Shown here: one piece after another, positions 8,810 to 37,398 of the stretch
Layout of the letters: every line of letters starts with the position of its first letter
Position numbering within the stretch: position 1 is the first letter of the stretch
Assembly: GCA_027073795.1 (NCBI GenBank)
Contig: JALTEW010000453.1
Span: 1 to 42,667 of the forward strand
From: a bacterium
GTDB taxonomy: Bacteria > Desulfobacterota > S145-22
DNA: 42,667 nt
Direction: 5' to 3'
Notes under the pieces: generated by a model
Database searches by the model: none
The model's input: only the letters and a program-made list of their open reading frames with translations
Told to the model about the DNA's origin: nothing
Translations under genes and position numbers: made by a program

Positions 8810-9772
8810 ATGATACTGAAACGCGCGAAAGAAATCCTGCTAAAAGAATCCGAAGCTATCCGAGATGTGGCTGGTCACCTCGATCATACCTTCAACCGGG
8901 CCGTGGACCTGATTCTGAGTGGAAAGGGTAAGGTAGTCACCACCGGCATTGGAAAGTCCGGGCTGATCGCCCAGAAGATTGCGTCCACATTCTCAAGCAC
9001 GGGGACGCCTTCGTTTTTTCTCCATCCGGCAGAGGCGTTACACGGCGACCTCGGCATGGTGGAGAACGAAGACATTCTCCTGGCTATTTCAAACAGCGGA
9101 GAGGCTCCAGAAGTTGTTAGAATTGCCTCCTCACTCAAACGCATTGGCGTTAAAATCATCGTTATCACCCAAGATGCAAACTCCTCTCTGGGGCAACTGG
9201 GAGACATCTTCATCAGAGTAAGCGTACCAGAGGCATGCGGTTTCGGATTTATTCCCACCTCTAGCACCACGGCAACCTTGGCCCTTGGGGACGCCCTTGC
9301 GATAACGGTCCTGGAGAAACGGGGCTTTACACAGGAGGATTTTGCCTCCCTTCACCCCGGTGGAGCGCTTGGCAAACGTCTTCTGCTCAAGGTAGAGGAA
9401 CTCATGCATGTGGGAGACAGGCTTCCCATCGTAAATACGGATACACCTATGAAAGACACAATTTACGAGATATCCTCCAAGCGCCTGGGGGTTACCTGCG
9501 TCTGTGACCCGGAGGGTAAAATGGTCGGTGTCATCACAGACGGGGACTTACGGAGAGCGATTGAAAAGGATGGGAATCTTCTTTCCAAAACCGCCAAAGA
9601 CATCATGACCTATAACCCGAAACGAATCAAGAAAGATGCCCTGGCCTCTGAGGCCATCCAAAAAATGGAGGAATTTGCCATTACCTCTCTTTTCGTTGTT
9701 GAAGTGGAAGAACCCCAAATTCCCATTGGTGTCGTCCATATTCATGATCTATTGAAGGCGGGGGTGCATTAG
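8810..9772 (+). CDS. kdsD: arabinose-5-phosphate isomerase (KdsD/GutQ family; SIS plus tandem CBS domains)
   Basis: Start moved to ATG 8810 (MILKRAKEILL...), just after the pyrG stop. It carries the SIS motif VVTTGIGKSGLIAQKIASTFSSTG and a C-terminal CBS pair. The ORF-track start at 8690 lies inside pyrG. Confidence 0.9.
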   Translation: MILKRAKEILLKESEAIRDVAGHLDHTFNRAVDLILSGKGKVVTTGIGKSGLIAQKIASTFSSTGTPSFFLHPAEALHGDLGMVENEDILLAISNSGEAPEVVRIASSLKRIGVKIIVITQDANSSLGQLGDIFIRVSVPEACGFGFIPTSSTTATLALGDALAITVLEKRGFTQEDFASLHPGGALGKRLLLKVEELMHVGDRLPIVNTDTPMKDTIYEISSKRLGVTCVCDPEGKMVGVITDGDLRRAIEKDGNLLSKTAKDIMTYNPKRIKKDALASEAIQKMEEFAITSLFVVEVEEPQIPIGVVHIHDLLKAGVH

Positions 9773-9780
9773 ACACCGTC

Positions 9781-10395
9781 ATGACAGCTCATAAAAAGAT
9801 AAACAGATTGCGGATTTTCATTCTCTGTATCATCGGGGCCTTTGTCATTGCCATTTCAACGGTTATTTACATCAACGTGAAACTGAAAAATCTCGTAAAA
9901 ACCCCCAAAAACCTCGTGAAGCTATCCAGAAATATTCCCGACCTCCGGCTTGAAAACGTTCATTACGAAAAGACTAGAAAGGGCCAAACAGAGTGGTCAA
10001 TCGATGCCCGTGTCGCACACCACTTCGAGGGCAAAGACCTGCTGACCCTGGAAGTTGTAAAAATGCTTTATTACGGGATGCCAAAGAGAACGGTTCTTAT
10101 TGTTGGGAAACAGGGAAGAATCAAACCATCGACAAAGGATGTGGAGCTTCTGGGAGATGTTCACATAAAGAGCAGTGACGGGTACAAGCTCCGGACCAAT
10201 TCCCTCAAATATTCGTCGAAAACTTCACTGATTACCACCAATGACCGGGTCTTTATCAGCGGCAAATCCTTTAATATCTCAGGCGTGGGGATGGAAATGA
10301 ACATCAAAGATGACAGATTGAGCATTTTGCACGCTGTTCAAACGACCTTAAAGAGAAACTTCGTCAAGGGAGGTATCCCAAAGCTGGGGTTTTAA
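9781..10395 (+). CDS. lptC: LPS export system protein LptC
   Basis: 204 aa with a single N-terminal TM anchor and a beta-jellyroll-like body. Its position immediately upstream of lptA-lptB is conserved. Confidence 0.75.
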   Translation: MTAHKKINRLRIFILCIIGAFVIAISTVIYINVKLKNLVKTPKNLVKLSRNIPDLRLENVHYEKTRKGQTEWSIDARVAHHFEGKDLLTLEVVKMLYYGMPKRTVLIVGKQGRIKPSTKDVELLGDVHIKSSDGYKLRTNSLKYSSKTSLITTNDRVFISGKSFNISGVGMEMNIKDDRLSILHAVQTTLKRNFVKGGIPKLGF

Positions 10396-11732: not shown

Positions 11733-13160
11733 ATGGCACTTGAAATCAAACAGCAGCTCAAATTAACCCAGCAACTGGTTATGACACCCCAATTACAGCA
11801 GGCATTGAAACTGCTGCAGATGTCACGACTCGAATTGCTGCAAACCATACGCCAAGAGATCCTTGAAAACCCTGTTCTCACGGATGAAGTGGAATCAGCA
11901 GAAATTCCAGAGGAATCCATCCCCGACGTTGAAAAGGAAATCCCGGACGCAGAAATGGAAATGCTGATGGACTTCAATTGGGAAGCCTATATGGACAGCC
12001 ACAGCCTTTCCACCTCCTACCCCAATTCCTATGAAATGTCTGAGCCCTCACCTAATTACGAGAATTTTATCCAGGCCCGGTCCTCACTGTACAAAGATCT
12101 CCTTTGGCAATGGAGGCTGAACTGCCAGGATGACCGAAGCTTTGAAATTGGAAAATATATCATAGGTAACCTTAATGAAAACGGATACCTAAGCGCAGAT
12201 TTTGAAGACGTTTCTAAAGATTTAAAGCCCCTAAATCCCACAAGAGATGAATTTGAGGCAACCCTATCCCTGATTCAACAATTAGACCCACTGGGAATCG
12301 CAGCCCGAGATCTCACTGAATGCCTCCTTATCCAGTTAAACAATAAAACCCCGAAGAATCCCCTGGCCGAAGAAATCGTAAAAAACCATCTGACGCTTCT
12401 GAAACGAAGAGATATTCCCAAACTGGCCAAGAAACTCTCCGAATCACCAGAGAAAATTACGGAAGCCATTCAACTCATCTGCGAACTGGACCCAAAACCG
12501 GGGAGAACCTATACCCAGGACCCCATTTACCATGTCATTCCTGATGTTTATGTTTACAAAGCAGACAATGAATTTCTTATCGTTCTCAACAACGAGGATA
12601 TCCCCACCCTGCAGATCAACCCGCTTTACCGGGCGCTTCTACGCAAAAAAGAAGAGCTTTCTAAAGAGGCCCGTGAGTTCATAGAGAAAAAGATGCGCTC
12701 CGCCATTTGGCTCATAAAAACCATCCAGCAACGGCATAAGACTATTTACAGGGTCACGGAAAGTATTGTACGTTTCCAGCAGGATTTCCTTGAAAAGGGT
12801 GTCCAGTTTCTCAAGCCTATGATTCTCAAGGATGTGGCCAATGACATCGGTATGCATGAATCCACCGTGAGTCGCGTGACTCAGGGTAAATACATCTCCA
12901 CACCCCAGGGATTGTACGAGTTCAAATTCTTCTTCACCAGCGGTGTCAGATCCACGCGTGGGCCGGACATCTCCGCTGAAAGTGTGAAACATATGATTCG
13001 CCAAGTCGTCATGAACGAAGACCCCAAAAATCCACTCAGCGACGAGCAGATCGTCAAGCTTCTGTCCCGGTATCACATAAAAATAGCAAGGAGGACCGTT
13101 GCAAAATACAGGGAAGCCATGAAGATCCTGCCATCCAAGGACCGAAAAAAAAACTTCTAA
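11733..13160 (+). CDS. rpoN: RNA polymerase sigma-54 factor
   Basis: 475 aa with the region I Gln/Leu-rich N-terminus (LKLTQQLVMTPQLQQALKLLQMS), an HTH, and the RpoN box ARRTVAKYRE. Confidence 0.96.
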   Translation: MALEIKQQLKLTQQLVMTPQLQQALKLLQMSRLELLQTIRQEILENPVLTDEVESAEIPEESIPDVEKEIPDAEMEMLMDFNWEAYMDSHSLSTSYPNSYEMSEPSPNYENFIQARSSLYKDLLWQWRLNCQDDRSFEIGKYIIGNLNENGYLSADFEDVSKDLKPLNPTRDEFEATLSLIQQLDPLGIAARDLTECLLIQLNNKTPKNPLAEEIVKNHLTLLKRRDIPKLAKKLSESPEKITEAIQLICELDPKPGRTYTQDPIYHVIPDVYVYKADNEFLIVLNNEDIPTLQINPLYRALLRKKEELSKEAREFIEKKMRSAIWLIKTIQQRHKTIYRVTESIVRFQQDFLEKGVQFLKPMILKDVANDIGMHESTVSRVTQGKYISTPQGLYEFKFFFTSGVRSTRGPDISAESVKHMIRQVVMNEDPKNPLSDEQIVKLLSRYHIKIARRTVAKYREAMKILPSKDRKKNF

Positions 13161-28436: not shown

Positions 28437-29309
28437 TTAACCCACCATCACCTTTTCCCACACTTGCCTCATCAGAGGTGCAACCTCTGGAACATCGGCT
28501 TCAACAATTGTCTTGCCAGCTACCATTGCCTCTATCACACCCCGATGAAACGGAATTTCCCCCACGACTTCAATTCCCTTCTGGAGACAATACGCCTCAA
28601 TCTGTCGGGTATTGGCAAGATGGACATCATATTTGTTAATGCAAACCTGCGCGGGGATATTGAAATGCGCCGCCAAACTCAGCACGCGCTCCATGTCATG
28701 AATCCCTGACAAGGTAGGTTCCGTAATTATCAAGACCTTATTCACTCCAGCAAGGGCTGCCGTTACGGGGCAACCGATACCCGGAGGGCCATCAACAATA
28801 ACCCACGACCGTCCCTGCTTCTTGGCAATATCAACGGCCTCTTTTCGCACCACTGTAACCAATTTTCCGGAATTCTCCTCGGCGATACCGAGTTTCGCAT
28901 GAACCATAGGACCGAAACGCGTGTCTGAAACAAACCAATCTCCGGAATGCGCATCCTCCATTTTAATCACATGTTCAGGACAGGCATGGGCACAAAGTGC
29001 ACAGTGGTCGCAGGCAAATAGGTCCACGACACCATCGTGAATGGCATCAAAACGGCACACGTCGGTACAAACTCCACACCTCGTGCAATTTTCAAGATCG
29101 ACAACTGGATTTCTTCCCCCATAGAATGGAGACGACTTTTGAACTGTGGGGGTCAAAATCAGATGCAGATCCGCGGCGTCCACATCGCAATCGGCCATCA
29201 CCTTATTCTCCGTCAGCTGGGCGAAAGCAGCGGTGAATGTCGTCTTACCTGTTCCCCCTTTCCCACTTATGATAGTAAGCTGCTTGGGATCAGTTTTAGT
29301 TTCTGTCAT
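28437..29309 (-). CDS. MinD/ParA-class P-loop ATPase with an inserted 2x[4Fe-4S] ferredoxin module (orp-type, copy B)
   Basis: Start set at ATG 29309 (MTETKTD...). It has the deviant Walker A SGKGGTGKT and an insert CTRCGVCTDVC ... CDHCALCAHACP. It overlaps the upstream paralogue by 14 nt. Confidence 0.85.
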   Translation of the reverse strand: MTETKTDPKQLTIISGKGGTGKTTFTAAFAQLTENKVMADCDVDAADLHLILTPTVQKSSPFYGGRNPVVDLENCTRCGVCTDVCRFDAIHDGVVDLFACDHCALCAHACPEHVIKMEDAHSGDWFVSDTRFGPMVHAKLGIAEENSGKLVTVVRKEAVDIAKKQGRSWVIVDGPPGIGCPVTAALAGVNKVLIITEPTLSGIHDMERVLSLAAHFNIPAQVCINKYDVHLANTRQIEAYCLQKGIEVVGEIPFHRGVIEAMVAGKTIVEADVPEVAPLMRQVWEKVMVG

Positions 29310-30162
29310 GATGCACCTCCTTTTGAACAACCTCAAACATCTCCAGAAACCTGTCCCTGTACTGCGGAAGGATATCAATAAGGGCCTTACCACCCGCATA
29401 TCCCTGGGCTATTTCCTGCATCAAGGGAATCTCCATAAGAATAGACAAGTTCTCCTCTTGGCAATAAGCATGCACGCTATCGTCACCCGCATCCGCGCGA
29501 TTGATAATGACACCCATGGGAACCCTTAACTCCCTACAAACCCCAACTGCCAGTTTCAGGTCATTGAGGCCGAAGGGCGTGGGTTCCGTCACAAGAATCG
29601 TATAATCGCTTCCCTCCACAGTTTCAATAACAGGGCATGAGGTTCCGGGAGGGGCATCCCGAAGTGTAATAGGAACACCAGTCAATGCCTCCTTCTTCAA
29701 CCTCCTGATAATCGGTGTGGCCATGGGTTCACCGATGTTAAGTAACCCCTGTGAAAACACGATTCCATTCCTCGCGGGGCCATTCCTGATAATCCCAATG
29801 GGTTTTTCAATCTCCGTAATCGCGTCGACTGGACAGATATAGCTACAGGCCCCACATCCATGACAAAGTTCATCGAATACCAAAACCTTGCCACCAATGA
29901 CCACAATGGCCTTAAATTCACACACACGATTACACTCGCCACACGCCGTGCAAACCGATTCGTTGACCCTGGGGACCACCAATCCTGTCGGTATTTCGTT
30001 CTCCCACTGAGGGCTTAGAAAGATATGACCGTTGGGCGCCTCTACATCACAATCAAGGTACTGAACACCCTCGGGAAGAGACAGAGCCAAGGATGTTGCC
30101 ACCAACGTTTTCCCTGTTCCACCCTTCCCACTTGCCACCGTTATGGTTAATGATGTTTTCAT
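29296..30162 (-). CDS. MinD/ParA-class P-loop ATPase with an inserted 2x[4Fe-4S] ferredoxin module (orp-type, copy A)
   Basis: 288 aa with the deviant Walker A SGKGGTGKT and an insert CTACGECNRVC ... CHGCGACSYICP. Confidence 0.85.
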   Translation of the reverse strand: MKTSLTITVASGKGGTGKTLVATSLALSLPEGVQYLDCDVEAPNGHIFLSPQWENEIPTGLVVPRVNESVCTACGECNRVCEFKAIVVIGGKVLVFDELCHGCGACSYICPVDAITEIEKPIGIIRNGPARNGIVFSQGLLNIGEPMATPIIRRLKKEALTGVPITLRDAPPGTSCPVIETVEGSDYTILVTEPTPFGLNDLKLAVGVCRELRVPMGVIINRADAGDDSVHAYCQEENLSILMEIPLMQEIAQGYAGGKALIDILPQYRDRFLEMFEVVQKEVHHDRN

Positions 30163-30270: not shown

Positions 30271-30549
30271 TTACCAGCGCCAGATACGCCCCCGGCCACC
30301 GCCAAACGCGCGACCCCGGCCACCGCCATAGGGAATTCCCCCACGGCCAACGCCATAAACGGGGCGACCATAACCGGCTATTCCATAATAGGGATAGGGA
30401 ACCGCCCACCCCGTACCATAACCATAAGGCGGATACCAACGTCCGGCACCTACATACGAAACATATCCTGCCGGACGGGCACAATATCCCCGCCCACCGC
30501 CGGTCAGGGGGCCTTCACCCCTCGGCCCTGTACCATCAAATCCTGGCAT
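30271..30549 (-). CDS. DUF5320-like Gly/Tyr/Arg-rich low-complexity protein
   Basis: Start set at ATG 30549, 8 nt after AAGGAGG. The N-terminus MPGFDGTGPRGEGPLTGGGRGYC matches my recollection of the DUF5320 N-terminal motif. The remainder is GYG/RGG-type low complexity and ends in GRIWRW. Confidence 0.75.
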   Translation of the reverse strand: MPGFDGTGPRGEGPLTGGGRGYCARPAGYVSYVGAGRWYPPYGYGTGWAVPYPYYGIAGYGRPVYGVGRGGIPYGGGRGRAFGGGRGRIWRW

Positions 30550-30573
30550 GGCACACACCTCCTTTCACCCGTT

Positions 30574-31164
30574 TTAAGATTGGGTTAGTTTTTTCAACAT
30601 TTCCTTCATTTCATTCAGATCCTTCTTCAAATCATTGATCTCTGAACGGAGCTGATCTGTCTCGGGATTGGGCCCCGGCTGCACCTGATAACCCATGCCA
30701 CGCCCCATACCCATGCCACGACCCATACCCATACCACGCCCCATACCCATACCTCTGCCCATGCCGTATGCTGGCGCTGCGCCAGTATCTCCTCCAGCAC
30801 CCACGCCATAGTGCGCATCTACAGAAGGCGCCGAAACGCCTTGAAGGGTCTCCTGCTTGAATGCCTCAATCGCCTGGCGTACCGTACCCGGGGGTGCCAG
30901 GTAAACCCCTACCCCAGCCGCCTGGAGGGTTTGTATAGCATTGGGTCCTACATTTCCCGTAATCACGGCTTCGGCACCCTTGTTCGCAACAAACTGTCCC
31001 GCCTGAATCCCGGCGCCACCACCCGCCATCATGCTCTCATTACCAAGGCTTTCCAGAACCTGCATCGAATCCGTATCCACAAGTAGAAAATACTGACATC
31101 TCCCAAACCTCGGGTCCAGTTCATCATCCAGGCCGGGGCCTGTCGATGTAACAATTACCTTCAT
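30574..31164 (-). CDS. NifX/NifB-C-terminal-like (dinitrogenase FeMo-cofactor-binding fold) protein with a GMGMGR-repeat and coiled-coil tail
   Basis: Residues 1-105 show the NifX-like pattern (DPRFGRCQYFLLVD ... GAEAVITGNVGPNA ... GVGVY). Residues 134-158 are the (GMGMGR)n repeat. Residues 165-196 form a charged heptad-like tail (LRSEINDLKKDLNEMKEMLKKL). Confidence 0.85.
   Translation of the reverse strand: MKVIVTSTGPGLDDELDPRFGRCQYFLLVDTDSMQVLESLGNESMMAGGGAGIQAGQFVANKGAEAVITGNVGPNAIQTLQAAGVGVYLAPPGTVRQAIEAFKQETLQGVSAPSVDAHYGVGAGGDTGAAPAYGMGRGMGMGRGMGMGRGMGMGRGMGYQVQPGPNPETDQLRSEINDLKKDLNEMKEMLKKLTQS
30691..30765 (-). repeat. imperfect 18-nt tandem repeat (about 4 units) encoding GMGMGR
   Basis: Plus-strand units are CCCCATACCCATGCCACG / ACCCATACCCATACCACG / CCCCATACCCATACCTCT and so on. 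They lie in frame inside the NifX-like gene. Confidence 0.8.
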
Positions 31165-31198
31165 TTTATGTCACTCCTTCCGGTCTTTAAAACCGATT

Positions 31199-31555
31199 TT
31201 ATAGTCTTTTTATGACCACTTTTTGGAGCAAGCCGCTCCTATATTTTTGATAGGCCCTTTCCACTGTCATGTCACCCTGAATCCGGTAAACATCAACCCC
31301 CATCTTTTCAAAAACCCCGAAGGCGTTGGGACCAACCGCACCTGAAATGACCCCTGTGGCACCCTCGTTTATCACCTGCTGGGCTGCTTCAGTTCCGGCC
31401 CCCATTGCGGTATCCGCCGCATCGTTTCTTATGGCATACACCTGAGGTGCGCCTAAATCATCTTCGTCAACAAAGATAAAGTATGGTGCGCGCCCAAACC
31501 TCGGGTCAGCCTTTGACGCAAGACTGTCACCCATAGAAGAAATAGCTATTTTCAT
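31199..31555 (-). CDS. NifX/NifB-C-terminal-like small protein (ORP-like paralogue 2)
   Basis: Start set at ATG 31555 after GGAGG (MKIAISSMGD...). Motifs are DPRFGRAPYFIFVD and GATGVISGAVGPNAF. The ORF-track start at 31717 lies inside the upstream gene. Confidence 0.85.
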   Translation of the reverse strand: MKIAISSMGDSLASKADPRFGRAPYFIFVDEDDLGAPQVYAIRNDAADTAMGAGTEAAQQVINEGATGVISGAVGPNAFGVFEKMGVDVYRIQGDMTVERAYQKYRSGLLQKVVIKRL

Positions 31556-31601
31556 TTTGCCTCCATCCTCAATGCATACAGCAGCCCTGATGATGCCAAC
31601 G

Positions 31602-31964
31602 CTAATGTTCGTGCTCCGCGCAACCGCTCGCGCCCTTTGCCTCCCCTCTGAGATAGGCGTCCAAGACATTCCGGACGATCCCCATATAGCCCGTGACCAC
31701 TTCAATTCCGTATCCATTGAAAATATTTATCGCCATGGGTCCCATCCCACCGGCAATCATCACATCCACGTTTTGCGAATGGACAAACGCGGGAACCTTT
31801 CCTGGCTCATGACTATTGTAAAATGGGTTTTCAACCACGGACACATCTTGAATCTTCCCATCTTCCACATCTACCAGTGTGTAGTAGGGACATCGGCCGA
31901 AATGACCACTCATCTGACCCTCCAGCCCCAAGTTATCTTGTGACGCAAGCGCAATTTTTGGCAT
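31602..31964 (-). CDS. NifX/NifB-C-terminal-like small protein (ORP-like paralogue 1) with a Cys/His tail
   Basis: 120 aa with GHFGRCPYYTLVDV, VDVMIAGGMGPMA and the C-terminal GCAEHEH. Confidence 0.85.
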   Translation of the reverse strand: MPKIALASQDNLGLEGQMSGHFGRCPYYTLVDVEDGKIQDVSVVENPFYNSHEPGKVPAFVHSQNVDVMIAGGMGPMAINIFNGYGIEVVTGYMGIVRNVLDAYLRGEAKGASGCAEHEH

Positions 31965-31980: not shown

Positions 31981-32526
31981 TTACGATTTATAGTGATTTT
32001 CATAAACAAAATCTGACAGTTCTTTCCTCTTTGGCCCTTCCGGAACCCTATCAGGAATTCCAATGGGTAACAATGCAACCACGGCGACACCTTCAGGAAC
32101 ACCGAGAATTTCCTCCGCTTTTGAGGCGTCAAACAACCCAACAATCACAGACCCCAGCCCCTGGGCGTGTGCAGCGAGACACGCATTCAATGTTGCCGCC
32201 CCCACGTCAAACATGAACCAGTCGCCTTTATCAGTTGAAACCTCCCCCTTATAAAAACCAGACCGCCCCTTTATTCCACACATCACAAGCACAACGGGCG
32301 CTTGTGTCATGGCCTTAAATGCCGGATTACCCGGCGGCAAGGTCCCAGCCAACTGTTCCTTGACCTTATTATCCTTAACCACTACGACCTCCCAGCACTG
32401 GGTATTGGCCCAAGAGGGAGTCCACTGAATCGCCTCGAGAATCGCTTGCAGTTGTTCGTCCGATATAGGATCAGGCTTCATCTCTCTTGTTGCGCGCCGG
32501 GCCCTGATCGCCTCTAAAACATCCAT
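31981..32526 (-). CDS. nitroreductase-fold (FMN-dependent) family protein
   Basis: The N-terminus [15 protein letters not shown] and [16 protein letters not shown] are typical of the nitroreductase family. The start is probably the second ATG (32526), 6 nt downstream of the one abutting the RBS GGAGGAGGG. Confidence 0.85.
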
Positions 32527-32552
32527 TATCATCCCTCCTCCCCATTCACTGT

Positions 32553-33404
32553 TCAGGCCTGAGAAGCCTCATTAGCCTTGGACTCCTCTACAAACACGCG
32601 CACTTTTTTTACCACCTCTTTAAACGCCAATGCCGCCTTTGAATCAGGATGGGAAATGACAAAAGGGGCACCGCGATCGCTATCCTGAACAATCTCCGGA
32701 TCAATGGGGATACTCCCTAAAAAGGGAACCCCCAACTCCAAGGCCGCTTTCTTCCCGCCTCCTACCTTAAATAAGTCAATTTCCTTTCCACAATAGGGAC
32801 AGATCAACCCGCTCATGTTCTCCACAATCCCGACCACCGGTACCTGAAGCTGGCGGCTAAAGGTAACTGACTTCCTGGAGTCAAGAAGTGCCACATCCTG
32901 CGGGGTCGTTACAATGATACTGCCATCCATCTGGTTGATAACCTGAGCAACACTCAGCGGCTCATCCCCTGTCCCTGGAGGCAGATCGATAATCAGGTAA
33001 TCAAGTTTCCCCCAATTGACATCCTTGACAAACTGCTGGATAAGAGAATGTTTCAGAGGACCCCTCCAGACCACGGGGGTATCCCTGTCCTGCAATAAGA
33101 ATGCCATGGAAACAACCTTGAAATTGGGAAAGAACTCAACGGGATTAATCCCTCCCGCCTCGCTTCCCCCCAAACGGCTGGATTCAATGCCCAACATCTT
33201 TGGGACATTCGGACCGTGGACATCTACATCCATCAATCCTACACTTAAACCTTCCTTTGCAAGGGTCATTGACAAATTAACCGCAACCGTTGTCTTGCCA
33301 ACCCCCCCCTTTCCACTCATAACAGCTATACGGTGGTCAATTGTACTCAATCTCTTCGTAATAAGTTCCTGCTCCTTCTTTCTATCTTCGACTTTTTTTG
33401 CCAT
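32553..33404 (-). CDS. mrp: Mrp/NBP35/ApbC-family Fe-S cluster carrier ATPase
   Basis: 283 aa with the deviant Walker [20 protein letters not shown] and the CPYCG (CxxC) cluster-bridging motif. Confidence 0.92.
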
Positions 33405-33424: not shown

Positions 33425-33601
33425 TTAAAAACAGCCTAACTGACAGGCTACAATTTTAAGGTTTAATTTATTAATAAGCTTCCCCACCCTTCTAACAGAC
33501 ACATTAAGCTCTCCTGCAACCTTATGGGCCGCCCGACAGCTTATTTTCCCGTTTTTTGAAGCCTTCTTTATCCGCTCAATAACCTCCTCTTCGGAACTCA
33601 T
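33425..33601 (-). CDS. unlisted 58-aa ORF: small HTH-like protein with 3 Cys (C-terminal CQLGCF)
   Basis: It is below the 60-aa cut-off of the ORF track. The translation is MSSEEEVIERIKKASKNGKISCRAAHKVAGELNVSVRRVGKLINKLNLKIVACQLGCF. Its ATG overlaps the TGA of the upstream MBL gene (ATGA), and its stop lies 20 nt before the mrp start, so it exactly fills an otherwise unexplained 190-nt gap in a tight operon. Confidence 0.6.
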   Translation of the reverse strand: MSSEEEVIERIKKASKNGKISCRAAHKVAGELNVSVRRVGKLINKLNLKIVACQLGCF

Positions 33602-34464
33602 TGAAGTACTACCCCCCCCTTCTCATAAATTGTAATAACGACCCCTGCCATCGCTCGGAAAAACCTCTTTCCGAAGGAACGTTTCATCTCATCCGCCGCT
33701 TCAAGTCCTGTACAGTGGGATACACCAATGGTTTGTATGTTCATCCCTTTAAGGGCTTCGATGGTTTTCTTCGTCTGCCTCGGGTCCACCCTTGATAAGT
33801 GCGTTCCTCCAACCACCGTTAAGATAGGGACGTTCCCCGCCAAAGTCAAGATATGTTCCAAAATATTTACCACCCCCCTGTGAGAGCAACCTAAGATTAC
33901 CACCAACCCCTGGGGTGTCTTAATGTAGAGGGATGCATCATCCATGAACGGATCACGGACAGATAACCCCTTCTCATCCTTAACAACCAGAAGTGGGTCA
34001 CCCTTTTCGAAATCGTTTGCCTGTGGCACTTCACTGACATAGAAGATATCAGGCGCCACTTCATAATGGGGAGTCACAAATTTGAAATTGATCCCCCTGC
34101 TCTCCAGATAGGCCTGTGTATAGGGACACCCAATGTATTTCAGGGAACCATCTTTTTGCTTTTTATAACGCGCCACAAAAACGTCCCTATGAGCAATCAC
34201 CTGCACATTCACGGAAGAACGGGCAAGACTGAGCAACCCACCCGTATGATCATAATGGCCGTGGCTCAACACAACAGTATCAATAGACGAGAGGTCCTTT
34301 CCCATTACATCGGCATTATGCCAGAAAACATCAGACTGACCGGTATCGAAAAGAACCTTTGTGTTTCCCCTCTCAATAAGGATAGAAAACCCATGTTCCG
34401 CGCGAATTCCTTCTTTCATCGCAGCGCTATTGTCACAAAGAACGCTGAGAGTTATTTTATCCAT
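33598..34464 (-). CDS. MBL-fold metallo-hydrolase
   Basis: Start set at ATG 34464 (MDKITLSVLCDN...). It carries the metal-binding motif LSHGHYDHTGG and a later GCSHRG. Confidence 0.85.
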   Translation of the reverse strand: MDKITLSVLCDNSAAMKEGIRAEHGFSILIERGNTKVLFDTGQSDVFWHNADVMGKDLSSIDTVVLSHGHYDHTGGLLSLARSSVNVQVIAHRDVFVARYKKQKDGSLKYIGCPYTQAYLESRGINFKFVTPHYEVAPDIFYVSEVPQANDFEKGDPLLVVKDEKGLSVRDPFMDDASLYIKTPQGLVVILGCSHRGVVNILEHILTLAGNVPILTVVGGTHLSRVDPRQTKKTIEALKGMNIQTIGVSHCTGLEAADEMKRSFGKRFFRAMAGVVITIYEKGGVVLQ

Positions 34465-34777
34465 TCGTTTCACCTTGTTTGAGGCGGCTCTTTCCGTTTC
34501 GTCTGTGATACCGCCCACACTGCTTCCTTCGGCAGTTCCTTACCTTCCAGCATGGCGCAATTTCCATCAATCTCTTAACACCCGTCAGATTGATGCCATC
34601 TTCATGAATAAGCTTGCGGATACACCGAATATACTCCAAATCATCATCAGAATAATACCTGCGCCCGTTCCTTCTCTCCGGTTTAATAAGGTTTTCCTGC
34701 TCATAAATCCTCAGCGTCCGGGGATGGACCTGAAGCAAATCCGCCGCAACCCCTATTGGGTAAACCCCCTTCCCCAT
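34457..34777 (-). CDS. MerR-family transcriptional regulator with a short Cys-rich C-terminal tail
   Basis: 106 aa. The N-terminal HTH is YPIGVAADLLQVHPRTLRIYEQENLIKPERRNGRRYYSDDDL, and the tail is PCWKVRNCRRKQCGRYH (C-x6-C-x4-C). It overlaps the MBL gene by 8 nt. Confidence 0.85.
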   Translation of the reverse strand: MGKGVYPIGVAADLLQVHPRTLRIYEQENLIKPERRNGRRYYSDDDLEYIRCIRKLIHEDGINLTGVKRLMEIAPCWKVRNCRRKQCGRYHRRNGKSRLKQGETNG

Positions 34778-34808: not shown

Positions 34809-34837
34809 AATATAATGCTGTAAATATATATTGTCAA
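34809..34837 (-). promoter_or_regulatory. sigma70-type promoter candidate for the merR-led operon (TTGACA-17 nt-TATATT)
   Basis: The minus strand reads cTTGACA-atatatatttacagcat-TATATT, about 30 nt upstream of the merR ATG. The spacer contains a TATTTACAG half-site. Confidence 0.5.
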
Positions 34838-34842
34838 GTTTT

Positions 34843-34862
34843 CTGTAAATAATTATTTACAG
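34843..34862. promoter_or_regulatory. perfect 20-bp AT-rich palindrome CTGTAAATAATTATTTACAG (operator candidate)
   Basis: Perfect dyad centred about 50 nt upstream of the predicted start site. A third copy of the half-site CTGTAAATA lies at 34818-34826, inside the promoter spacer. Confidence 0.5.
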
Positions 34863-34880: not shown

Positions 34881-35252
34881 TTACACATTATCAATGGAAC
34901 ATGTAAAAATTGCGGGAGAAGAGGTATGGTTTTTAAGCGCATGGGGTTCAAAGGTATAGGTATAGATGGTCTCTCCAGGCCCCACTTCCACCGTCTCTTC
35001 CTCCGTTGAAAAAAGGAGCGCCCCTTCCAGCATGAAAACAACTTCCTCATAGGCATGTTCGTGCATGGGTATTTCTCCACCCGGCTCCAGAACAAAATAC
35101 CGGAAAGAAAAATTGTGGTTATACGCTTCCCCTCCCGTTTCAGAATCCACAATCCACCGGATTTTACAACCGGTCACGGGGACCTTTTCCCCATGGCGTA
35201 TCACTTCCTTGACCTCGATCTCGGGAACATCACTCACCTTTCTGACAATCAT
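34881..35252 (-). CDS. cupin-domain protein
   Basis: Start set at ATG 35252, 5 nt after GGAGG. It has the single-domain cupin motifs GGEIPMHEHAYEEVVFMLEG and GETIYTYTFEPHALKN. Confidence 0.8.
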   Translation of the reverse strand: MIVRKVSDVPEIEVKEVIRHGEKVPVTGCKIRWIVDSETGGEAYNHNFSFRYFVLEPGGEIPMHEHAYEEVVFMLEGALLFSTEEETVEVGPGETIYTYTFEPHALKNHTSSPAIFTCSIDNV

Positions 35253-35329
35253 TTGAACCTCCAAAAACTTTTCATTTTAACTTCTACCAGGGCTTTTCAA
35301 ACCACGATATTTAGCATATCCTTTAAGAA

Positions 35330-36541
35330 ATGAAAACCGCCCACAAAGTTGCTTCTTACTCCATTGCCGTCAACGTCATCCTCTTTGCCTTAAAATTGGT
35401 TATAGCACTCATTTCGGGAAGCATCTCACTTCTTGCTGATGCCATCCATTCCTCCACCGACATCATCTCCTCCATTGCCCTTTTAATAGGGATAAAAATC
35501 TCCGGACGCAAATCCAGAAACTTTCCCTTTGGCCTGTACAAGGTGGAAAATCTTGTTTCTCTTGGGATCGCCTTTATCATCTTTCTGACAGGGTATGAAA
35601 TCATCCGTGAGGTTTTCTTTGAACACAGATTTCTCAAATTAACCCGACCTTTCCTCGCTATGACCACGGCAGGGGCTGTTATGTGCATAACCTGGTTCTT
35701 CTCCGCTTACGAAATAAAAATGGGAAAGAAAGAAAACTCTCCCGCTATTACTGCCGACGGCAAACACGTCCGGACAGACGCCATCGTTTCCTTCATCGTC
35801 CTTTTGGGACTTGCCGGCAAGCTTGTTCATATTCCGGCTGAAAAAGCCGCAACTATCATTGTCATCGGGTTTATCATGAAAGCCGGTTGGGGCATTCTTC
35901 TGGAATCCATTCGAGTGCTTTTAGACGCATCTATAAACCCCAAGACCTTGAATCAAATCAGAGAGATTATTACTTCCCATCCCGCTATTACGGACATCCG
36001 GGAAATTATCGGGAGAAACTCGGGGAGTTTTACATTCATCGAAGGAAATCTCGTGGTCAAAGCGAGGGACTTCACACATGCCCATCAGATTATCGAGGAA
36101 ATAACCGAAAAGGTCCGTCGGCAGATCCCGCATATTGACCGTATTGTTCTGCATTATGAACCGGCCAAGAAATCGACATTTCTTATCGCCGCCATGTTAT
36201 CAGACGGTGCACAATGGCGTGTTTCAGAGCATTTCGGAGATGCCCCCTACATCGGTTGGATAGAGATTCACCTCAAGGAAAACCGCATCATCCACACGGA
36301 GGTTGCCGCCAATCCCTACGGCAATATCGAAAAGGGCAAGGGCATTAAGGTCGCTGAACACCTCATCAATCGTGGTGTCGATCTTGTTTTAACCTGCGAG
36401 TCTTTTAGCGGGAAAGGACCTGAATATGTTTTCAGCAGCCGGGATGTCAAGGTGTTTAGAATATCAGAAGAATTCATTTATCCCGATCTTATCGCCAGAA
36501 TCTACAAAGAAGAAACCGGGCAGGAGTTATCGAAATCCTGA
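35330..36541 (+). CDS. cation diffusion facilitator (CDF) transporter fused to a C-terminal NifX/NifB-like domain
   Basis: Residues 1-205 form six TM segments, with HSSTD in TM2 and HVRTD in TM5 (an H-D/H-D site). Residues 206-290 form a CDF cytoplasmic domain. Residues 291-403 read FLIAAMLSDGAQWRVSEHFGDAPYIGWIEI ... GVDLVLTCESFSGKGPEYV ... VKVF, the same pattern as the three NifX-like genes opposite. Confidence 0.85.
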   Translation: MKTAHKVASYSIAVNVILFALKLVIALISGSISLLADAIHSSTDIISSIALLIGIKISGRKSRNFPFGLYKVENLVSLGIAFIIFLTGYEIIREVFFEHRFLKLTRPFLAMTTAGAVMCITWFFSAYEIKMGKKENSPAITADGKHVRTDAIVSFIVLLGLAGKLVHIPAEKAATIIVIGFIMKAGWGILLESIRVLLDASINPKTLNQIREIITSHPAITDIREIIGRNSGSFTFIEGNLVVKARDFTHAHQIIEEITEKVRRQIPHIDRIVLHYEPAKKSTFLIAAMLSDGAQWRVSEHFGDAPYIGWIEIHLKENRIIHTEVAANPYGNIEKGKGIKVAEHLINRGVDLVLTCESFSGKGPEYVFSSRDVKVFRISEEFIYPDLIARIYKEETGQELSKS

Positions 36542-36831: not shown

Positions 36832-37398
36832 ATGAAACAAATGGGTCATAAGGCAAGACTTGTCACCATCACCGGGATCCTCATTCTCACATTCATGGTC
36901 AGTGTCACCCAAGGTTGGGCAAAACCCCTGCGGAACCGACAACGCATGATGGAAAAAATCGAAACCATCAAGATGTGGAAACTAATGGATGCCCTGGACC
37001 TCGACAGTCAAACCGCTTTGAAGGTCTTCCCCATCATCCGGAAGATCGATAAAAAGCGGCTGGACCTGCGCGCAAAACAGCGGGATCTCCTTGATAAAAT
37101 TGAAAATCTTGTCAAAGAAGGTAAGGGAAACGCCAACAGCCTTGACACCCTTGCCAATCAACTCTTCGATCTAAATGAACAGATCAGCCAACTTCCCCGG
37201 GAAGAATACAGAAGGCTCAAGCCCGTTCTGGCGGAAACACAACTGGCCAGGTACCTCATTTTCCAGAAACGTTTCCGGAAGGAGCTCATCCATCGCTGGA
37301 TGCAGAACAGACGACGCAAACCGGTGCAGGAGCGCTCTGGACCCGGTGTGAGAAGCAGGAACGGACTCATCGTGCAACCTCCACAGCCACAGCCCTGA
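36832..37398 (+). CDS. periplasmic helical protein, Spy/CpxP-like (tentative)
   Basis: 188 aa, with the RBS AGGAGG, a signal peptide and a highly charged helical body with LxxxQ-type repeats. The family assignment is tentative. Confidence 0.5.
   Translation: MKQMGHKARLVTITGILILTFMVSVTQGWAKPLRNRQRMMEKIETIKMWKLMDALDLDSQTALKVFPIIRKIDKKRLDLRAKQRDLLDKIENLVKEGKGNANSLDTLANQLFDLNEQISQLPREEYRRLKPVLAETQLARYLIFQKRFRKELIHRWMQNRRRKPVQERSGPGVRSRNGLIVQPPQPQP

Follow-up and report, generated by a model that had tools for sequence, protein, structure and literature searches.

Why should a membrane transporter of metal cations carry a domain from a family of cofactor carriers, and does it work together with the metal-sulfur proteins encoded next to it? 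The question is raised by a stretch of 42,667 nucleotides from a bacterium of the Desulfobacterota (assembly GCA_027073795.1, contig JALTEW010000453.1, positions 1 to 42,667; below, the window), in which the gene at 35330-36541 on the forward strand encodes a cation diffusion facilitator (CDF) fused at its C-terminus to a domain of the NifB/NifX family (IPR003731, Pfam PF02579). A cluster resembling the gene clusters that encode the orange-protein complex (ORP complex) lies upstream on the opposite strand. An earlier note, made from the letters of the window, had described the fusion and connected it with this cluster. The fusion was found to recur in many independent assemblies, its additional domain was placed in the MTH1175-type branch of the family, and a functional link between the fusion gene and the ORP-like cluster was found to be well supported.

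Domain architecture of the fusion protein

The gene and the parts of its product were located as follows.

35330-36541, + strand: complete CDF-IPR003731 fusion gene, stop codon included (single open reading frame, ORF)
35330-35929, + strand: transmembrane (TM) domain, residues 1-200, six helices (Cation_efflux match, AlphaFold helices, YiiP alignment)
35939-36163, + strand: cytoplasmic ZT_dimer domain, residues 204-278 (Pfam, YiiP alignment)
36164-36175, + strand: four-residue linker A279-S282, between the last strand of the ZT_dimer domain (271-278) and the next strand (283-292; DSSP on the model)
36176-36538, + strand: PF02579/IPR003731 domain (MTH1175-type, putatively IssA-type; NifB/NifX family), residues 283-403 (Pfam, PDB match, domain model)

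The gene starts with ATG and encodes 403 amino acids in an unbroken ORF without internal stops. In a Pfam scan, all three domain matches of the protein exceeded the curated cutoffs: Cation_efflux (PF01545) at residues 10-198 with 125.4 bits (cutoff 26.6), ZT_dimer (PF16916) at residues 204-278 with 48.3 bits (cutoff 26.7) and Nitro_FeMo-Co (PF02579) at residues 297-378 with 32.5 bits (cutoff 26.3, E = 1.1e-7). The NCBIfam model of the CDF superfamily, TIGR01297, was matched with 167.4 bits (cutoff 82.35). A full-length AlphaFold2 model was built from an alignment containing 75 homologs, with a mean predicted local distance difference test score (pLDDT) of 83 and a monomer predicted template modeling score (pTM) of 0.50. 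Its TM helices span residues 3-29, 32-58, 70-97, 107-134, 138-165 and 170-198 and are followed by the C-terminal cytoplasmic domain (CTD), with alpha-beta-beta-alpha-beta topology, and by the extra alpha/beta domain, modeled at pLDDT 85-93. The protein is a member of the CDF superfamily by its hidden Markov model (HMM) matches, its six-TM fold and its site A; Pfam, TIGR01297 and the AlphaFold model thus bear out the complete CDF, with six TM helices and a cytoplasmic domain, that had been read from the sequence.

Both motifs singled out in the earlier note, HSSTD (residues 40-44, TM2) and HVRTD (residues 146-150, TM5), are present and align to site A of YiiP, H40/D44 and H146/D150 coinciding with D45/D49 and H153/D157 of the E. 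coli protein. Among 75 fusion proteins, H40, D44 and D150 were each conserved in 75/75 and H146 in 73/75, while D37 and D143, near site A, were invariant. In the CTD, H252, H275 and E277 align with the site-C ligands H248, H283 and D285 of YiiP and were conserved in 71/75, 72/75 and 67/75 of the fusions, respectively.

Recurrence of the fusion

A homolog search with the fusion protein returned 1106 matches at E ≤ 1e-5, and homologs aligned across 93-100% of its length. The best 120 of these matches came from many independent assemblies (NCBI, JGI, ENA and Logan) and were 40-79% identical to the query; according to precomputed annotation, 120/120 carry PF01545, PF16916 and PF02579, so the fusion is genuine and was not created by a frameshift. 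Named members include EFK08710.1 (cultured strain NaphS2), MDY6880795.1 (Desulfatiglans sp.), MFC1851527.1 (candidate division CSSED10-310) and MDY0096306.1 (Ca. Vecturithrix), each labeled in the databases only as 'cation diffusion facilitator family transporter'. Hundreds of entries under this label hide a distinct subfamily.

A search with the additional domain alone, covering 1.84 billion representatives, gave 199 matches at E ≤ 1e-3. Matches of short and medium length were mostly truncated gene calls of fusions, beginning in the 'IHYEP' strand of the CDF or in TM4, and the Lys-rich EKGKG/GKGP subtype of the domain is therefore essentially confined to CDF fusions; a few short matches (e.g. 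P0148 and P0131) could be truly stand-alone. In a literature search of incomplete coverage, no paper describing a CDF-IPR003731 fusion was found. The sequences, and the architecture in precomputed annotations, were known; what appears to be new is their recognition as a subfamily of its own, linked to ORP, and the mechanism hypothesized below.

The appended C-terminal domain

The C-terminal 124 amino acids alone matched PDB entry 1EO1 (MTH1175) with E = 2.8e-6, and TM1816 was matched as well. Since a fold search with the full-length model returned mainly CDFs and was silent on the extra domain, residues 284-403 were modeled separately (pLDDT 94.6, pTM 0.87). The top 11 PDB fold matches of this model were all PF02579 proteins (E 1e-6 to 2e-3, TM-score 0.62-0.77), among them TM1816, PH0822, MTH1175, TM1290, NifX within NifEN (9ian_F, rank 9) and Ta1041m; beyond these 11 followed generic RNase-H-like folds with TM-scores below 0.4. 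The similarity to the NifX/NifB fold that the earlier note had asked for was thus found at both levels, by HMM (32.5 bits) and by structure.

When a profile of the fusion family was compared with the PDB, its domain part matched MTH1175 (E = 1.8e-8), TM1816 (1.3e-6) and TM1290 (6.5e-3), and no NifX, NafY, NifB or orange-protein chain was retrieved at E ≤ 1. This places the domain in the non-nif, MTH1175-type branch. The former label 'NifX/ORP-like' therefore holds for the NifB/NifX family, on HMM and fold, and fails for a bona fide NifX or orange protein; membership among bona fide NifX/NafY proteins failed on context also, as the window contains no nif genes. The nearest relatives are MTH1175, TM1816, TM1290 and PH0822, stand-alone proteins of non-diazotrophs that share the HFG, NP and glycine-loop motifs; the fused domain differs from this group in being attached to a membrane transporter and in having no cationic tail.

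Conserved motifs of the fused domain are S-E-H-F-G-x-A-P, N-P, E-K-G-K-G and G-K-G-P-x-Y-V. G303, N328, G338, G361, G363 and P364 were invariant across the 75 fusions, and H301, F302, A305, P306, P329, G336, K337, D351, Y366 and V367 were at least 90% conserved. No Cys is conserved, and 40/75 homologs have none in the domain. MrpORP's Di-Nase domain, in contrast, carries Cys/His motifs (CxHFGHCE and CDH) and binds a [3Fe-4S] cluster (PMC6345978); its counterpart in the fusions reads SEHFG(D/E)AP. Identity to distant members amounted to 37-43% for the fused domain versus 37-44% for the CTD, and this equal conservation indicates purifying selection of comparable strength. The domain is acidic (median isoelectric point, pI, 5.4 across members; 5.55 in the window protein), and residues 381-403 form a short helix and an acidic end. 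A globally cationic domain attracting anionic thioferrate, considered as a candidate, is unsupported given this median pI.

The earlier note had also seen in the domain the pattern of three stand-alone NifX-like genes on the other strand. These genes, at 30574-31964 (-), do belong to the same family. The fused domain shares 27-29% identity with two of their products (E 1e-5 to 1e-6) and the third was undetectable by BLAST, and its loops EKGKG and GKGP stand against GGGAG and GNVGPN in the stand-alone paralogs. Judged from these alignments, the fused domain and the stand-alone proteins of the window are distant paralogs of one family. A recent duplication of a neighboring NifX-like gene is ruled out by the 27-29% identity and by the fusion-specific subtype.

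Linkage to the ORP-like cluster

The neighboring genes of the window are the following.

28437-30162, - strand: two Orp3/Orp4-like CbiA/MinD-type ATPases with inserted 2x[4Fe-4S] ferredoxin domains (NCBIfam, sequence)
30271-30558, - strand: DUF5320 protein, rich in Gly, Arg, aromatic residues and Pro, 95 amino acids (Pfam, composition)
30574-31164, - strand: stand-alone PF02579 protein with (GMGRGM)n and a coiled DUF5320 C-terminus, the tailed NifX-like protein (Pfam, tblastn)
31199-31555 and 31602-31964, - strand: two stand-alone PF02579 genes (Pfam)
31981-32532, - strand: nitroreductase-family gene (best NCBIfam match BluB-like, below cutoff)
32553-33404, - strand: Mrp/NBP35 P-loop ATPase (P-loop half of the MrpORP model, positions 1-257, 371 bits)
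33425-33601, - strand: conserved gene of 58 amino acids ending in CQLGCF, between the Mrp gene and the next gene
33598-34518, - strand: metallo-beta-lactamase (MBL)-fold hydrolase (Pfam, NCBIfam)
34457-34777, - strand: MerR/HspR-like regulator (Pfam, NCBIfam)
34881-35264: divergent cupin gene

In Desulfovibrio, the genes of the ORP complex encode Orp3, Orp4, Orp5/8 and Orp9, the latter being MrpORP (PMC6345978). With its Orp3/4-like ATPases, its Mrp/NBP35 protein and its several IPR003731 proteins, the predicted gene content of the window cluster is that of an ORP gene cluster. MrpORP itself appears to be split in the window between the Mrp gene and the first NifX-like gene (31602-31964), whose product matches positions 273-364 of the MrpORP model, the Di-Nase half; the nitroreductase gene lies between the two.

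With the window proteins as tblastn queries, neighbors lying no more than 10 kb from the fusion gene were tallied in 10 loci: the clade of the window, counted once, and nine further loci at 41-47% identity. Three of these (L010, L011 and L014) are mutually 78-89% identical and all other pairs at most 70%, so that the 10 loci represent 8 lineages. The most constant neighbor of the fusion gene was the ortholog of the tailed NifX-like gene, present in 9/10 loci at 45-59% identity. Orp3/4-like genes were present in 7/10 loci, with orthologs at 46-59% identity in L009, L010, L012, L013, L015 and L016, and Mrp in 5/10.

Gene orders differ between the loci. The close relatives L001-L007 (69-75% identity) are syntenic with the window, and the MBL and MerR/HspR-like genes are conserved throughout this clade. 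In L009 (Ca. Vecturithrix cluster) and L012, the fusion gene is embedded in an ORP-like cluster; it shares the strand of that cluster and has stand-alone PF02579 genes on either side. In L016 such a cluster ends with the fusion gene, which overlaps the DUF4213-DUF364 gene before it. In L013 the fusion gene follows a cluster that also encodes NifU_N, CooT, MOSC, FeoA and an MBL protein, and an MBL gene adjoins it in both L012 and L013. In L015 (CSSED10-310) it stands beside a PF02579 gene and a fused double Orp3/4-like gene, and in L010 an Orp3/4-like pair, the tailed PF02579 gene and a sigma54 activator are found 6-8 kb away.

The tie between the fusion and the ORP-like cluster, proposed from the window, is thus kept across lineages with differing gene orders. 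The cupin, which had been counted as part of one metal-related region, did not hold its place: it is missing from L001, L004 and every distant lineage. A genome of this kind, of several Mb, should hold a mere handful of PF02579 genes, and the chance of finding the fusion gene close to one is put at a few percent, an estimate rather than a measurement. Given the persistent linkage and this low chance, a functional link between the fusion gene and the ORP-like cluster is well supported. Being conserved across Thermodesulfobacteriota, Ca. Vecturithrix and CSSED10-310, the linkage offers a testable handle on the function of ORP-like clusters. A study of ANME-2a archaea lists a CDF, C5S33_05750, beside 4Fe-4S, 'FeMo-cofactor biosynthesis' and P-loop genes and leaves the linkage uncommented (PMC12622379).

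DUF4213-DUF364 genes were observed beside the CDF-NifX gene in L010 (401-1123), L013 (11321-12818), L014 (2895-3617) and L016 (9279-10004), and none in the window itself. DUF364 is described in Pfam as 'putative heavy-metal chelation'.

CDF type and candidate metal

YiiP/FieF of E. coli and Shewanella oneidensis (PDB 2QFI, 3H90, 5VRF, 8F6E) has the six-TM core and the ZT_dimer CTD in common with the fusion protein, aligned end to end. The His/Asp pair of TM5 and the second Asp of TM2 are identical, and the three site-C ligand positions are conserved. The two differ in the first TM2 ligand, which is His (H40) in the fusion and Asp in YiiP, and in the approximately 120 additional C-terminal residues that form the IPR003731 domain; we know of no solved CDF carrying such a domain. 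The full-length model superposed on YiiP with a target-normalized TM-score of 0.83-0.85, and the fusion-family profile matched YiiP/FieF at E 1e-27 to 1e-29, versus 1e-6 or weaker for the ZnT family.

The NCBIfam equivalog models scored, in bits, MamB 134, MntE 132, MamM 128, Cdf31 122, FieF 89, ZitB 39 and DmeF 30, all below cutoff; the cutoffs are 350-500 bits for MamB, MntE and MamM, and those of the FieF equivalogs were failed at 88.9 versus 420 bits and 84.6 versus 447 bits. The best-scoring models, MamB/MamM and MntE, lie in the same Fe/Mn/Zn branch of the CDFs as the fusion. MntE has N-D/D-D as its site A, from which the H-D/H-D pattern of the fusion differs. Identity as a magnetosome MamB or MamM was rejected, as the scores of 134 and 128 bits fall far short of the 350 required; no magnetosome genes occur in the window, the remainder of which consists of ordinary chromosomal housekeeping genes.

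No His-rich cytoplasmic loop or terminus is present in the sequence, the TM4-TM5 loop reading KMGKKENSPAITADGKH. Although site A is H-D/H-D, these comparisons class the CDF core as YiiP/FieF-like and not as ZitB/CzcD/ZnT-like. The scores on the YiiP/FieF/MamB side and the missing His-rich loop mean that Zn specificity is not established. Of the earlier proposal that H-D/H-D marks a Zn-type member, the motif stands, and the Zn-type assignment does not follow, affinity to ZitB, DmeF and ZnT being poor.

Iron-related genes neighbor the fusion gene elsewhere: FUR and VIT1-rubrerythrin in L012, FeoA and NifU_N in L013, and NifU_N in L016. These neighbors, and the Fe-S character of both ORP and IssA proteins, favor Fe(II) as the substrate. 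Owing to the H-D/H-D site, Zn(II) (or Co/Cd) stays a serious alternative.

Precedents for the fusion

Fusions of an IPR003731 domain have precedents in NifB, MrpORP and FmpB, and there are likewise CDFs whose regulation runs through the C-terminal domain. Acting as homodimers, CDFs move cations out of the cytoplasm, and binding of metal to the CTD favors the active dimer conformation, as established for YiiP and MamM. MrpORP (Orp9, DVU2109) is a precedent for the C-terminal attachment of IPR003731 to a metal-handling protein of an orp cluster; its partner is a soluble P-loop ATPase, whereas in the window the partner is a transporter. FmpB (DMR_41100) of Desulfovibrio magneticus RS-1, likened here by its description, is likewise a NifX/NifB-domain fusion from the Desulfobacterota. 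It joins this domain to an iron-biomineralization protein (PMC4287615), the partner being a magnetochrome/PDZ protein and not a CDF.

IssA of Pyrococcus furiosus (PF2025), made up of an IPR003731 domain and a cationic tail rich in Gly, aromatic residues and Pro, is a storage protein that keeps Fe and S in the form of thioferrate. Inorganic Fe and S are bound by its globular domain on its own, and the same study assigns MTH1175 to the IssA clade (PMC5524996). In Methanococcus voltae, IssA homologs rise during growth on FeS2 (PMC8516115). The fused domain shares the IPR003731 globular type, which binds inorganic Fe and S without Cys ligands, and may belong to the IssA clade by its relatedness to MTH1175. 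It differs from IssA in being acidic and in having no cationic Gly/aromatic-rich C-terminal tail, and is therefore IssA-type at most in its globular part. A composition like that of the IssA tail is found instead in the neighbors at 30574-31164 and 30271-30558.

Proposed function and its alternatives

The earlier note had proposed either a direct hand-off between transport and the ORP-like machinery or cofactor-gated transport, and the present evidence does not separate the two. The extra domain begins four residues after the strand that bears H275 and E277 and must therefore sit directly under the CTD dimer. Its conserved pocket loops and conserved lysines, together with the missing cysteines, suggest non-covalent binding of an inorganic metal-sulfur species, as in orange protein and IssA.

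In the model that we put forward tentatively, at slightly below even confidence, occupancy of the appended domain modulates closure of the CTD and so couples export of Fe(II) or Zn(II) to the metal-sulfide pool. The homodimer would work as other CDFs do, moving a divalent cation out of the cytoplasm into the periplasm in antiport with protons; the likeliest substrate is Fe(II), with Zn(II) as the chief alternative. An inorganic and probably anionic metal-sulfur species (Fe-S or thioferrate-like), handled by the ORP/IssA-like neighbors, would be the ligand of the appended domain. As this domain would be held rigidly beside the metal site of the CTD, its occupancy would bias closure of the CTD dimer and thereby tune efflux. 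The fusion might then serve sulfidic anaerobes as an overflow valve coupling metal export to the cytoplasmic metal-sulfide pool. In known CDFs, regulation acts through the cytoplasmic domain and its signal is the transported metal; a domain of the cluster-carrier type on that regulatory domain suggests a different input, namely the state of the metal-sulfur pool.

Several points weigh against this model. The metal transported, the ligand and the direction of the coupling are each inferred. Classically, an H-D/H-D site belongs to the Zn/Co/Cd type, and the motif alone does not favor Fe(II). The ligands of IPR003731 proteins differ, being a Mo-Cu sulfide in the orange protein, [3Fe-4S] in MrpORP and FeMo-co or NifB-co in NafY/NifX, and an acidic domain (median pI 5.4) fits an anionic ligand less obviously than the cationic tail of IssA does. 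The monomer pTM of 0.50 means that the inter-domain geometry is not confidently predicted. As to linkage, the tailed PF02579 gene is the only cluster gene near the fusion gene in L011 and L014 (NaphS2), and in L008 (Desulfatiglans sp.) no ORP-like gene was found within 10 kb.

A broader reading, possible if on balance doubtful, takes the CDF-IPR003731 protein as the membrane component of a thioferrate-like Fe-S homeostasis system of sulfidic anaerobes. The ORP-like and IssA-like proteins would store or traffic inorganic Fe-S within the cytoplasm, and the fused domain would read this pool or exchange directly with it, so that Fe-S storage and Fe(II) export would be physically coupled. What the ORP complex does has not been clear since it was described, and the biochemistry of IssA-type Fe-S storage comes from a single archaeon; if the broader reading were true, the role of the ORP complex would be metal-sulfide buffering rather than cell division.

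Among explanations that compete with modulation of the CTD, the one that survives best, unlikely as it is considered, is hand-off of the substrate: the fused domain would be a built-in metallochaperone and no allosteric sensor, supplied with metal, or with a metal-sulfur species that it takes apart, by the stand-alone NifX/IssA-like proteins and passing the cation straight into the CDF pathway. It can draw on the conserved linkage with stand-alone IPR003731 proteins to the same degree as the modulation model, and on the PF02579 genes that directly flank the fusion gene in L009 and L012. IPR003731 proteins are moreover typically carriers, such as NifX with NifEN (9ian_F) and IssA, which reconstitutes ferredoxin (PMC5524996). 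In YiiP structures, however, the substrate reaches site A via the cytoplasmic TM cavity, from whose entrance a domain under the CTD would be far away, and the fused domain offers no Cys ligands for a controlled disassembly of clusters.

Quite unlikely is a role as scaffold, in which the fused domain tethers the ORP-like complex to the membrane beside the transporter as an interaction module without ligand sensing, forming heteromers with its stand-alone IPR003731 paralogs or with the Orp3/4-like ATPases. Members of the family oligomerize, PH0822 having four chains in its crystal, and the gene linkage is conserved. Several proteins make up the ORP complex, Orp8 having been co-purified with Orp3 and Orp4, and MrpORP localizes to the cell pole (PMC6345978). 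Conservation of the fused domain is strongest in its glycine-rich pocket loops (HFG, NP, GKG and GKGP), as expected of ligand binding and not of a divergent interface, and locus L008 holds no partner gene near the fusion.

An ordinary Zn/Co/Cd-resistance CDF, with the extra domain as a lineage-specific stabilizing appendage and with ORP proximity arising from shared regulation or chance and not from a common biochemistry, is held to be improbable. Its H-D/H-D site A is that of ZnT/CzcD-type transporters, a MerR-family regulator with weak likeness to ZntR (37 bits) is encoded nearby, and so are a cupin and an MBL-fold protein, both from families in which binding of metal ions is common. Against these features, the linkage persists at 41-49% identity, in rearranged orders and in an overlapping-gene arrangement; purifying selection acts on the fused domain as strongly as on the CTD; the His-rich loop is missing and likeness to ZitB, DmeF and ZnT is poor; and the MerR gene has its best score with HspR and is confined to the clade of the window.

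An assembly or sequencing artefact, a frameshift joining a CDF gene to an adjacent NifX-like gene, can be dismissed as next to impossible, as the same fusion is found in 120/120 best homologs including the cultured NaphS2 genome, the four-residue linker joins two predicted beta-strands and the domain subtype is specific to fusions.

Regulation and further features of the window

Matches to the sigma54 consensus were not enriched (29 versus 36 expected) and none was intergenic. No gene for an enhancer-binding protein occurs in the cluster of the window, so that the sigma54-OrpR feature of ORP clusters was not found, and sigma54 control as in the orp operons of Desulfovibrio was rejected for want of a promoter signal. 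In L010 and L014, sigma54 activators adjoin the tailed NifX-like gene. The window also carries rpoN, encoding sigma54, at 11733-13160 (+) in the usual lptCAB-rpoN-hprK-rapZ arrangement, yet the ORP-like cluster showed no promoter of the sigma54 type.

Just upstream of merR, a sigma70-like promoter, TTGACA-17-TATATT, was located at 34837..34809 (-) with an 11/12 match. It is overlapped by a perfect palindrome of 20 bp, CTGTAAATAATTATTTACAG, at 34843-34862, a candidate operator and probably that of the MerR regulator itself. A MerR operator in common with the CDF gene was rejected, as the sole strong palindrome lies upstream of merR; by eye, no copy was seen in the 65-bp cupin-CDF intergenic region, in which no pattern search was run. 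The regulator has a Cys-rich C-terminus, CWKVRNCRRKQCGRYH, and is possibly a metal or redox sensor.

The mechanically called ORFs at 31199-31717 (-) and 28437-29399 (-) are probably over-extended at their 5' ends. For the second NifX-like gene, alignments with homologs begin at the Met at 31555, its probable true start, and the Orp4-like ATPase most likely starts at MTETK (approximately 29309), leaving a short overlap with the upstream gene. The product of 30271-30558 has a pI of approximately 10 and contains 30 Gly, 11 Arg, 18 aromatic residues and 10 Pro. The gene of 58 amino acids (33425-33601) was also found in L005, L006 and L007, with a weak DUF7645 match in L007.

Downstream of the CDF gene, 36832-37398 (+) encodes a predicted secreted protein of 188 amino acids that has no Pfam or NCBIfam match and is not syntenic in relatives; its LxxxQ-like motifs are reminiscent of periplasmic proteins of the CpxP/Spy/ZraP type. 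In L010 and L014, a diadenylate cyclase (DAC) gene, at 9303-10004 in both, overlaps the start of the CDF-NifX gene, and in the NaphS2-type lineage a large guanylate-cyclase/AAA/TPR protein is encoded downstream of it. There are thus hints of nucleotide second-messenger control of CDF-NifX in the NaphS2-type lineage.

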